A DNA stretch of 64,000 nucleotides, from assembly GCA_004211885.1 (NCBI GenBank), contig SHBV01000005.1, forward strand, positions 11,391 to 75,390, in the 5' to 3' direction. The translations under genes and the position numbers were made by a program. The notes beneath the pieces were generated by a model. That model was not told where the DNA came from and searched no databases. It worked only from the letters and a program-made list of their open reading frames with translations. The first letter of the stretch is position 1. Every line of letters begins with the position of its first letter. Below are positions 61,643 to 64,000 of the stretch, piece by piece. This DNA is from Verrucomicrobiaceae bacterium (lineage in GTDB: Bacteria > Verrucomicrobiota > Verrucomicrobiia > Verrucomicrobiales > DEV007).

Positions 61643-62698
61643 TCAGCTCACAATGATCTGCATTTCAGGATCTGGCTCTTTTGCGTAACCAACAATCGCA
61701 GAGTCAGTGATTCCCGTTGCTGTAAGTTTTTCTAGCGCTTCTGTGGCTTGCTCTGCAGGCAGCGCAACGAAGAGCCCGCCACTGGTCTGAGGATCAAAGA
61801 GGATTTCTCTCTTACTTTCTATTGCTGAGTTTTCGAATCGAATGTGCGGAATGGTTTTTTTGCGGTTATGCTTATTGACCCCAGTCGTTATTCCCTCTGC
61901 ATACATTTGATAGGCCTCTTCCATGACAGGCACTGAATTCAGATCCAAGTGTAGACTTGATTCTGATCCTTGTGCCATCTCTAGCCCATGACCAGCGAGT
62001 CCGAAACCTGTAATGTCTGTAGCTGCATGGATTTCAAAATTGGAAAATACTTCAGCAGCAGATTTGTTAAGGCTAATGACTGTATTGATGCAGGAATCAA
62101 AGGCCTCATCGGAGACTTTGCCCTTTAACCTAGCATTAAAAATGACACCCGTTCCAATAGGTTTTGTGAGAATCAGTGCGTCTCCAGGGCGTGCACCGAC
62201 GTTGCGCCAGATCTTTTGGGGATGCACAACCCCAGTAACAGATAATCCGAACTTAGGCTCAGAGTCTTCGACTGTGTGACCTCCTGCGAGGACGGCTCCT
62301 GATTCGGTAATTTTATCGAGTGCACCTTCAATAATTTTGTGGAGGTCCTCGGACGGTAATTGTCCGTCTGGGAAATTGACTAAGTTCAAACAAGTGATGG
62401 GGCGCCCTCCCATGGCATAAACGTCACTGATTGAATTCGCTGCAGCGATCTGACCATAAATGAAAGGATCATTGACGGGAGGGGTGATGTAATCTGCAGT
62501 GGTGACGATAGCGATCTCTTCGGTAAGCTTATAGACACCGGCATCATCGCTGGTATCAAAACCAACGAGAAGATTAGGATCTTCATTCTTTGGAAGACTG
62601 TCTAATAATTTTCCTAGCCCGACCGGGTCAATCTTTGCTGCTCAGCCGCAGGTCTTTGAAAGGCTTTGTAGAGTATTATGTTTTCTAAAAAATGGCAT
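61643..62698 (-). CDS. selD: Selenide, water dikinase (selenophosphate synthetase), selenocysteine-containing form
   Basis: The track ORF (61643..62413) lacks the SelD N-terminus. Extending the same frame upstream gives MPFFRKHNTLQSLSKTCG-TGA-AAKIDPVGLGKLLDSLP...TSDDAGVYKL...ANSISDVYAMGGRP. The TGA at 62642-62644 aligns with the catalytic Cys/Sec of the E. coli GAG-C-GCK motif (U-x-x-K is conserved). The total is 351 codons, the normal SelD length. Confidence 0.85.
62613..62632 (-). promoter_or_regulatory. SECIS-like hairpin for the selD UGA
   Basis: The mRNA reads UGA-GCAGCAAAGA-UUGACCC-GGUC-GGGCUAG. The GGUC loop falls at nt 21-24 counted from the U of UGA, compared with nt 22-25 in E. coli fdhF. 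Confidence 0.65.
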
Positions 62699-62874
62699 TT
62701 TCTATATAAATCTAATTACAATTAATAATACCATCACTATAAGGACTTCATAGAAATTTTTAAGATATCACCTCATTCAGCATGGTCTTTGAATTGACTA
62801 ATCACATTAAAATTTTTAAGATTTAATTTGAATTGAAACTAACTTGCGTTTTTTTTCGTAATAGACAGAGGCAA

Positions 62875-63222
62875 ATGGAGTTTAAAAAAATCACATCAAG
62901 AATTTCACTGATTTTGGTAATTGTTTTTTCATATACCATTTCGACATATTCGTATGAAGTTGATTGCCAATCATGTTGTTGCTGTGAGTTTGAACATTCT
63001 GTTAGTTGCGAATGCTTAACTGAAAATGACAATGATGAACAGTTCCCCATATATGCATTAGCCAGCAGCATAAAAAATATTTTAGATTACTCTAATTACT
63101 ATAGTCTTCCCAATCCCACTTTATTTCAGGTGGAACCTCTTTTAATTGGATCAGCTGGCAATAAATATTTTATACCATCCATCAAAAAGTACGCTTCTCG
63201 GAGTGTAGTTCTCTTGATTTAA
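62875..63222 (+). CDS. Small secreted Cys-rich protein (C-x2-CCCC-x8-C-x-C)
   Basis: ATG 62875 lies 4 nt after a GAGG Shine-Dalgarno sequence. The signal peptide is MEFKKITSRISLILVIVFSYTISTYS. The mature N-terminus is YEVDCQSCCCCEFEHSVSCECL, followed by a Tyr/Asn-rich tail. I recognised no family. Confidence 0.55.
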   Translation: MEFKKITSRISLILVIVFSYTISTYSYEVDCQSCCCCEFEHSVSCECLTENDNDEQFPIYALASSIKNILDYSNYYSLPNPTLFQVEPLLIGSAGNKYFIPSIKKYASRSVVLLI

Positions 63223-63336
63223 ATTAATTAGGTTTCTGATCTGGGCGACATCATTGCCCAAAATTTAAAAACTCTTCGTTTTTTATTACATTAATCTTGT
63301 GCCTAGGAACAGACAGGCACGCCTAAATTTATTATT

Positions 63337-64000
63337 ATGAACCACTTCAAATTATCTATTCTTATTTTTATTGTTTTCGAATTTTATACCTATCAATTCC
63401 TAAGTGCGGGATGACCTGCCTGAACTAATCCAGCAATTCCCCGGTCGGGGAATTCAGAAATTACCGCTATGGACCAGTCCATATTCTCATGGAAAGTGGG
63501 TACAGATTTTTCTATTAGTAATGGTATTTTTGGCAGTCACTTATCAAATAATGGCTTAACGAGTTCATTTGAAAATGTCGAAGTTCCAACTCATCGACAT
63601 GATGTCGAAATGGATTTAAGAAGAGCAAGCCTTTCAATTATGAAATCAATTAATGAGGAGTGGGATGCTGCTTTGATGATTCCCTATTTTTGGAAATCTC
63701 AGAAAGCGTCGGTATCTTTTCTTGAGCCTGCAGATCCTTTACAATTAGAGTATGCAGAAAGGAGCGGGTACATTCATCATCGTACAGAAAATTACAATGG
63801 GTTTGGAGATATGGAATTGATGGTAGGCTTCAAGAAACGAGACTTTTTCAAAGATGGATCGGTTTTGAGGTTGGGTATGGGATTGGCTCTACCTTCTGGA
63901 AGGACTGAAAGTGATCCGTGGATATTAGGAGATTACGGAAGAAAGCATCTACATATTCAGTTTGGCAATGGAACTGTAGATCCATTATTAAATCTTTATT
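63337..64000 (+). CDS. Partial CDS: candidate exported selenoprotein with U-P-A-U motif (two in-frame TGA), His-rich beta-type body; runs off window
   Basis: ATG 63337 opens a frame encoding MNHFKLSILIFIVFEFYTYQFLSAG, which looks like a signal peptide. Then come TGA (63412-14), CCT, GCC and TGA (63421-23). The same frame then stays open for ~192 more codons to nt 64000. A SECIS-like hairpin follows the second TGA. Confidence 0.55.
63435..63454 (+). promoter_or_regulatory. SECIS-like hairpin (perfect 8-bp stem, GGUC loop)
   Basis: The hairpin AATTCCCC-GGTC-GGGGAATT starts 11 nt after the second TGA. The loop falls at nt 23-26 from that UGA. No T-run follows, so it is not a terminator. It shares the 10-mer CCCGGTCGGG with the selD element. 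Confidence 0.6.

Follow-up and report, generated by a model that had tools for sequence, protein, structure and literature searches.

Gene content of the locus

The stretch of DNA analyzed here (the window) comprises 64,000 nt (contig positions 11391–75390) from a metagenome-assembled genome of 3.33 Mb, 80% complete, whose relatives carry the labels Verrucomicrobiales or Akkermansiaceae in public records. Close to its 3′ end lie a small gene encoding a Cys-dense protein, a gene for an outer-membrane barrel with two selenocysteine (Sec) codons and, divergent from the small gene, selD (Table 1). A sequence-only reading of the same DNA had noted the 115-residue ORF with its basic and hydrophobic N-terminus, two hairpins behind it, a divergent selD and a downstream U-x-x-U gene. 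Translation bore out the ORF as described and the other features were all confirmed, selD itself containing an in-frame TGA. The good Shine-Dalgarno sequence that had been assigned to the ORF did not hold up: the GAGG in question (62868–62871) is only 3 nt 5′ of the ATG and is not conserved among orthologs.

Table 1. Features of the region around the small gene. Coordinates are positions in the window; those past 64000 are extrapolated.
Feature	Coordinates	Strand	Basis
selD (Sec form) with in-frame TGA; neighbor, outside the two-gene unit	61643–62698	−	
Two-gene cassette, 1.7 kb, present or absent as a unit	62730–64000 (to ~64456 by extrapolation)	.	Alignment to cassette-free G002
Small gene, 115 codons + TAA	62875–63222	+	Translation; orthologs 25–50% identical with frame unbroken
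Predicted export signal, residues 1–26: basic n-region, 12-residue hydrophobic core, invariant S23 and S26	62875–62952	+	Hydropathy, invariant columns
Cys cluster C34-C35-C36-C37-x7-C45-E46-C47, then acidic stretch	62974–63015	+	Invariant in 7- and 14-sequence alignments
Variable spacer, residues 48–105, predicted disordered, fixed length	63016–63189	+	dN/dS, alignments, AlphaFold2
Invariant C-terminal tail Y-A-[STVI]-R-S-[VQR]-V-L-L-I	63190–63219	+	dN/dS, codon variation
Hairpin 1, TGGGC...GCCCA, ~20 nt past the small-gene stop	63242–63260	+	Position conserved, sequence differs between clades
Hairpin 2 (palindrome) GTGCCT-N10-AGGCAC, consensus GYGCCN-N10-NGGCRC, 17 nt 5′ of the barrel ATG	63299–63320	+	Alignment folds
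Barrel gene, 348 aa, outer-membrane barrel with signal peptide	63337–64000 (to ~64383 by extrapolation)	+	Homologs, two TGA
SECIS-like hairpin in barrel gene	63435–63454	+	

The small ORF is a genuine gene of narrow distribution

The protein encoded by the small gene reads MEFKKITSRISLILVIVFSYTISTYS followed by YEVDCQSCCCCEFEHSVSCECL and ends in YASRSVVLLI. Whole-genome searches found orthologs in 6 of the 12 genomes of the same genus and in a second genus, and pattern scans added copies from six species-representative genomes and 12 metagenome contigs. Absence from related genomes had been named by the sequence-only reading as grounds for abandoning its proposal; the frame proved to be unbroken at about 20 orthologous loci, down to 25% identity, although these counts are not independent because every member belongs to a single, narrow lineage of marine bacteria. 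Complete copies have 112–115 codons without a stop, and identity to the window's protein drops to 25–30%. The small-gene frame was the sole open one in 14/14 orthologs tested; the other five frames are closed, with runs of at most 70 codons in the window copy and at most 54 in the orthologs. Pairwise dN/dS values were 0.22–0.34 in most pairs and 0.56–0.76 on the window's own branch. The small ORF is thus a genuine gene, and its products make up a fast-evolving mini-protein family, predicted to be exported, that is restricted to a few marine Verrucomicrobiales.

The GC content of the small gene is 33% and that of the barrel gene about 39%, compared with 43% for the genome, and the entire two-gene cassette is AT-rich relative to its flanks. 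Four consecutive cysteines occur in just two of the 6,329 stop-to-stop ORFs of at least 80 aa in the window's genome. The small gene was left uncalled in one NCBI record (JAKVDA010000021.1; L027:7381–7725, assembly GCA_022448385). A copy on a metagenome contig (L028:541–954), which has selD upstream, matches the G010 type over its first 50 codons and the GCA_022448385 type over the rest (compared with L034 and L027); this mosaic reflects either intragenic recombination or an assembly chimera.

Anatomy of the small protein and selection on its parts

The N-terminal region has a hydropathy of 2.3–3.1 over its 12-residue core and small residues at positions −3 and −1, and it is the only hydrophobic segment in the protein. 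S26 is likely the −1 residue of a signal-peptidase I site, and from these features the protein appears to be exported and its signal peptide cleaved. The cysteines (residues 31, 34–37, 45, and 47) start 8–10 residues past the hydrophobic segment. The seven cysteines of the sequence-only reading, four of them consecutive, are all present within residues 31–47, and none occurs beyond; only six are invariant, however, C31 being variable in both the 7- and the 14-sequence alignments. The six-Cys pattern is also visibly retained among the database cluster members retrieved, L48 beside it is likewise invariant, and the Cys codons vary synonymously (TGT/TGC) across orthologs. The predicted mature protein is acidic (pI 4.4–5.4).

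The distance from the CxC motif to the C-terminus is exactly 68 residues in all seven sequences measured, in which every clade is represented; one other ortholog has a 2-residue deletion in the spacer. The tail that follows contains no proline in any member of the family, and its synonymous codons differ among orthologs, as does the stop codon. A genome-wide search found the tail motif nowhere outside the small gene, and neither a paralog nor another protein sharing the tail as a possible sorting signal is present in the genome.

Regional dN/dS, estimated by the Nei-Gojobori method on four independent pairs, was 0.26 for the export signal (residues 1–26), 0.18 for the Cys head (residues 27–56), and 0.49 for the 48-residue middle (residues 57–104), which reached 1.03 on the window's lineage. 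For the last 11 residues it was 0.01 at a dS of 1.85, which shows that selection acts on the amino acids of the tail. AlphaFold2, run with 14 sequences, predicted an N-terminal helix alone, with a mean pLDDT of 45 overall and below 50 in the spacer.

The partner gene encodes a U-P-A-U outer-membrane barrel

The barrel contains the motif U26-P-A-U29, specified by in-frame TGA codons at 63412 and 63421, and the genome encodes tRNA-Sec, SelA, SelB, and SelD. Orthologs read a signal peptide, S-A-G, U-P-A-U, and then TNPAIPRSGNSEIT, and end in the outer-membrane-type sequence ...SLRRSF; the profile PF13557 gave a weak signal. Altogether 89 homologs were found. The two TGA codons are present in all 11 matches within the GTDB family, and a phylum-wide sample of 400 genomes contained no homolog of the barrel. 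Verrucomicrobial homologs are annotated as fragments of about 295 aa that start 3′ of the TGA codons. In JAKVDA010000021.1, for example, the annotated barrel begins at an internal TTG and has 295 aa, so that the signal peptide and U-P-A-U are lost. Homologs from Bacteroidota, on the other hand, are full length, with a signal peptide and then CPACSNPALQSSEKLE, which aligns with UPAUTNPAIPRSGNSE; the Cys version of the motif reads CPACSNPA. The CPAC and UPAU barrels are a classic Cys/Sec pair.

The signal peptide of the barrel ends in L-S-A-G just before the first Sec and, with U read as C, fits the PROSITE lipobox by eye; three Bacteroidota CPAC homologs checked in the same way do not. A lipidated Sec in the barrel seems unlikely from these sequences.

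The CPAC barrels of Bacteroidota are encoded directly 3′ of a gene for either a MerT-HMA fusion or an HMA-thioredoxin protein. Other genes in these loci code for regulators (AraC, ArsR, or CsoR), P-type ATPases, a MauG-like peroxidase together with MbnP, a multicopper oxidase, or YHS/HMBD proteins. Because the CPAC barrels lie within such copper and mercury loci, a role of the Cu or Hg soft-metal type is supported, and by analogy this is the best-supported theme for the window's barrel and cassette. The soft-metal theme of the sequence-only reading has thus gained backing from the MerT-HMA, HMA-thioredoxin, CsoR, P-type ATPase, and multicopper oxidase genes beside the Cys barrels.

A small Cys gene was sought upstream of the distant U-x-x-U barrels of Verrucomicrobiota and none was found; the only small Cys-rich ORFs preceding the more distant barrels are the MerT-HMA and HMA-thioredoxin genes. 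Since distant U-x-x-U barrels lack the small gene, it is a lineage-specific accessory. In one genome, a small ORF with the TRASH/YHS-like motif KFCCNGC (L025:2697–2891, G520) lies two genes 5′ of a distant U-x-x-U barrel, a hint that this barrel too keeps metal-related company.

The small gene and the barrel gene form a unit that does not include selD

At every locus the small gene is upstream of the barrel gene, and the distance from it to the barrel ATG is 106–123 nt (17 loci). Within the genus, the six genomes that have the barrel are the same six that have the small gene. The congener G002 shows an empty site: its selD is 95% identical to that of the window, both flanks align, and 197 bp stand in place of the window's 1,726 bp (L002 2121–3847). 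Three further congeners (G006, G008, and G011) likewise have selD without the cassette. Wherever the cassette is present in genus g1, the small gene adjoins selD divergently. In GCA_022448385 (L027), however, the cassette is located between a creatininase gene and clpB, apart from selD, and on a 3.7-Mb contig from a third clade it is beside selD with different genes downstream. Repeats flanking the cassette were looked for and none was convincing.

These patterns of presence, absence, and relocation indicate that the small gene and the barrel gene are inherited, lost, and moved as one unit, and that adjacency to selD is positional. They support a functional tie between the small gene and the barrel, as judged from genome comparison, whereas the position next to selD looks incidental. 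Of the neighborhood proposed in the sequence-only reading, then, the link to the U-x-x-U gene stands, with adjacency at every locus, fixed spacing, and joint gain, loss, and relocation; selD does not co-occur in this way and drops out as part of the module, given four congeners with selD at the same locus but no cassette and one cassette elsewhere.

Comparison of the window with G002 (62730–62875; L060:1273–1471) showed that homology runs about 60–110 nt beyond the selD start and then fades. Since this homology persists without the cassette, selD probably has a promoter of its own there, irrespective of the cassette's presence.

The intergenic region is structured

Hairpin 1 was not called as an intrinsic terminator by a consensus terminator scan, because no T-run directly follows it. 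Hairpin 2 is kept in all clades, with its pairs retained and some compensatory changes, and it does not cover the start codon of the barrel gene; an RNA element and a palindromic DNA operator are both conceivable. The loop sequence TTGG-N-TTTG of hairpin 2 is conserved in two clades.

Pairing is possible between the 3′ end of the small ORF (~63207–63233) and the start region of the barrel gene (~63321–63346) in the window's clade, with z-scores of −2.0 and −4.3. Such start-shielding pairing was not significant in the other clades. The genome has a Rho homolog; the spacer has a C/G ratio of 0.7–1.3 and, being neither C-rich nor G-poor, lends no support to a Rho-type mechanism. A search of Rfam over 62400–63700 returned nothing credible.

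Searches for known relatives of the small protein

The sequence-only reading could match the locus to no described system, and the homology and HMM searches likewise found family members only. None of 14 members of the small-protein family matched any Pfam family at E ≤ 10, nor was there an NCBIfam match or a match in a PDB profile search. A word-seeded search of 5.8 billion proteins returned only the small protein itself. When 1.84 billion cluster representatives were searched with a profile built from the 14 members, six matched, all of them belonging to the family; five of the family's clusters were examined, and their 82 member sequences are all unnamed or called 'hypothetical protein'. 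PF11162 (DUF2946) matched neither the 14 members nor anything else in the genome. A literature search on consecutive-cysteine or CCCC periplasmic metal proteins yielded nothing relevant. A 2026 review of prokaryotic selenoproteins covers Sec forms of MerT, HMA-type proteins, and P-type ATPases, and none like the small protein or the barrel. The family is thus without known relatives in the libraries and papers searched.

Several candidate assignments were considered and rejected. An HMA- or MerP-type metallochaperone, with its ferredoxin-like fold and GMxCxxC motif, was discarded for want of a PF00403 match, an AlphaFold2 fold, or a PDB match. A MerT/MerF/MerE transporter requires at least two transmembrane helices with vicinal cysteines in the first; the small protein has one hydrophobic segment, its cysteines lie outside it, and PF02411 gave no match. 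A SelD-linked gene of selenium metabolism was set aside in that co-occurrence and adjacency are not conserved beyond close relatives.

A possible role as an exported metal-sensing leader, and the alternatives

The small protein most likely senses copper- or mercury-type metals, or hands them over, for the barrel. As to how, the interpretation that we put forward tentatively is that the small gene specifies an exported, cis-acting leader peptide that senses thiophilic metal in the manner of CruR and CutF, lacking a proline arrest motif. Its Sec signal peptide would bring the nascent chain to the translocon, and the six-Cys head (CCCC-x7-CxC) would reach the periplasm while the ribosome remained on the last codons; by our estimate, the 68 residues from head to C-terminus are about the length that spans the ribosome tunnel and SecYEG. 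Metal loading or oxidation of the head would then alter the behavior of the tail (YA-x-RS-x-VLLI) inside the ribosome, and this in turn would set expression of the U-x-x-U barrel via the structured spacer. Metal binding, pausing at the proline-free tail, and the output step are what we infer from this arrangement.

Much of the conservation profile would be in keeping with such a leader. The combination of a predicted export signal, a Cys motif, a variable spacer of fixed length, and an invariant extreme C-terminus matches that of CruR. The concentration of constraint on the last 11 residues next to a near-neutral middle of unchanging length fits, as does the lack of a predicted fold. The cassette contains no regulatory gene, unlike the Bacteroidota loci with their AraC, ArsR, or CsoR genes; and the small gene is an accessory, as regulators tend to be, rather than an obligatory subunit. 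The conserved intergenic length with its two stem-loop positions and, in the window's clade, the potential of the 3′ end to pair with the barrel start are also consistent with a leader. Against it count the missing DUF2946 match, the absence of proline, RAPP, or PPP from the tail, the limitation of the start-shielding pairing to the window's clade, the lack of a Rho-like spacer, and the six invariant cysteines, which exceed the needs of a sensor. We know of no arrest peptide resembling YATRSxVLLI. A more specific version of the proposal, which we consider doubtful, is that YA-x-RS-x-VLLI is a proline-free, transmembrane-coupled arrest module through which the six-Cys head reports thiophilic metal (conceivably selenite or periplasmic thiol redox) to the ribosome, gating the double-Sec channel; small gene and barrel would then form a mobile sensor-plus-effector cassette.

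Alternatively, the small protein might persist stably in the periplasm, free or anchored by its signal, as a Cys6 soft-metal partner of the barrel. Its head, resembling a metallothionein and carried on a flexible chain, would bind Cu(I), Hg(II), or a similar metal (perhaps in a cluster of the Cu4S6 type), the hydrophobic tail would dock on the barrel or a PDZ-type partner, and metal would pass to or from the periplasmic U-x-x-U arm of the barrel. The small gene does occupy the slot of the MerT-HMA and HMA-thioredoxin genes directly upstream of the Bacteroidota CPAC barrels and is co-inherited with its own barrel, and a head of six invariant cysteines with an acidic patch would suit metal binding. 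Metallothioneins and periplasmic sponges of the SilE/PcoE type are typically disordered in the apo-form, and the last residue of the small protein is invariant, like C-terminal docking ligands. We rate such a partner as a close rival, slightly less probable than the leader. Against it, a near-neutral spacer of constant length, for which a sponge or chaperone would have no need, makes up three quarters of the mature protein, there is no recognizable metal-binding fold or HMA motif, other U-x-x-U barrels work without the small gene, and free thiols are difficult to maintain in the periplasm. The sequence-only reading took the ORF to encode a Cys-dense protein with a signal peptide; the orthologs, the selection on them, and the predicted export signal support such a gene and show it to be conserved. 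Its picture of a stable periplasmic peptide survives as one mechanism of two, since a CruR/CutF-type leader fits the conservation profile at least equally well.

A third use of an unfolded exported peptide encoded directly 5′ of a small barrel, and inherited with it, would be as a secretion substrate that leaves via the barrel for the cell surface or medium, where it scavenges or buffers metal, with the tail as recognition signal. This seems improbable inasmuch as the Cys barrel homologs have no such gene and neighbor inner-membrane and periplasmic metal proteins instead, and it leaves the constant spacer length unexplained. Still less probable, and very much so, is a selenium (chalcogen) handling module with selD in which, for example, four vicinal thiols capture selenite. 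The divergent arrangement with selD throughout genus g1 and the selenium needed for the barrel's two Sec codons speak for such a module, as does the selenite–thiol (Painter) reaction, whose stoichiometry is four thiols; but the four congeners with selD and no cassette, the cassette between the creatininase gene and clpB, and the location of Cys barrel homologs in Cu/Hg rather than selenium loci all run counter to it. As for the ORF being spurious or decaying in an AT-rich spacer, its low GC content, its omission from one NCBI record, and the lack of a database family might suggest as much, yet the unbroken frame at about 20 loci and the invariance of cysteines and tail despite saturated synonymous change effectively refute this idea.

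As the one conserved partner of a new channel, an outer-membrane protein with two selenocysteines found in abundant marine Verrucomicrobiales, the small gene offers a handle on the cargo of the channel and the timing of its synthesis, whichever mechanism applies.

Comparison with known systems

Of the small metal proteins to which the small protein may be likened, SilE, PcoE, and CopG are periplasmic; SilE, PcoE, and metallothioneins have little or no structure without metal; and the ligands are in short motifs. Unlike the small protein, SilE and PcoE bind metal via Met and His, metallothioneins are cytoplasmic and Cys-rich throughout, and CopG holds a tetranuclear Cu cluster with a CxCC motif in a thioredoxin-like fold. 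The ligand region of the small protein, by comparison, takes up only 14 of about 89 mature residues. With the MerT-HMA and HMA-thioredoxin proteins, and with the MerP/MerT relay, it shares its gene position relative to a homologous barrel and an exported or membrane location (predicted for the small protein) with Cys-based soft-metal sites facing the periplasm. It differs from them in having neither an HMA nor a MerT domain, no predicted fold, a single hydrophobic segment, and a CCCC cluster in place of the GMxCxxC of HMA domains or the intramembrane CC of MerT.

CruR of Bordetella pertussis (Bp2923, DUF2946) is encoded by an upstream ORF and has an export signal, a CXXC motif, and a RAPP arrest motif three residues from the C-terminus; a long intergenic region separates it from the gene of an outer-membrane transporter (PMC9426467). 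Across DUF2946, the spacing between CXXC and RAPP is conserved to 1–2 residues, more than 95% of the members have an export signal, and the gene is first in its operon (PMC9426467). Export of CutF in Rhodobacter capsulatus is co-translational; the cysteines of CutF sense copper in the periplasm, and stalling at a C-terminal PPP opens a stem-loop that shields the ribosome-binding site of the next gene (PMC9973294; bioRxiv 10.1101/2025.02.05.636593).

The small-protein family is not a member of DUF2946, to which it shows no sequence or profile similarity. Its Cys motif is CCCC-x7-CxC rather than CXXC or CXXXC, its tail is the proline-free YA-x-RS-x-VLLI rather than RAPP or PPP within the last 15 residues, the spacing between its motifs is 58 residues (68 to the C-terminus) compared with 45 in CruR, and its hosts are Verrucomicrobiota rather than the Proteobacteria of CruR and CutF. 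Sensing of extracytoplasmic metal by a nascent chain is a recent discovery that so far comprises one Pfam family and proline arrest motifs; if the small gene works like CruR and CutF, the mechanism was invented more than once and the known range of arrest sequences widens. The resemblance lies in the layout: as in CruR and CutF, a protein of fewer than 150 aa with an N-terminal export signal (predicted in the present case) carries in its mature part a Cys motif for metal (putatively so in the small protein) and a spacer that varies in sequence but keeps its length, and ends in a conserved motif at the extreme C-terminus; its gene is the first of a presumed operon in which a long, structured intergenic region is followed by the gene for an envelope protein of metal homeostasis, which for CruR, too, is a protein of the outer membrane.
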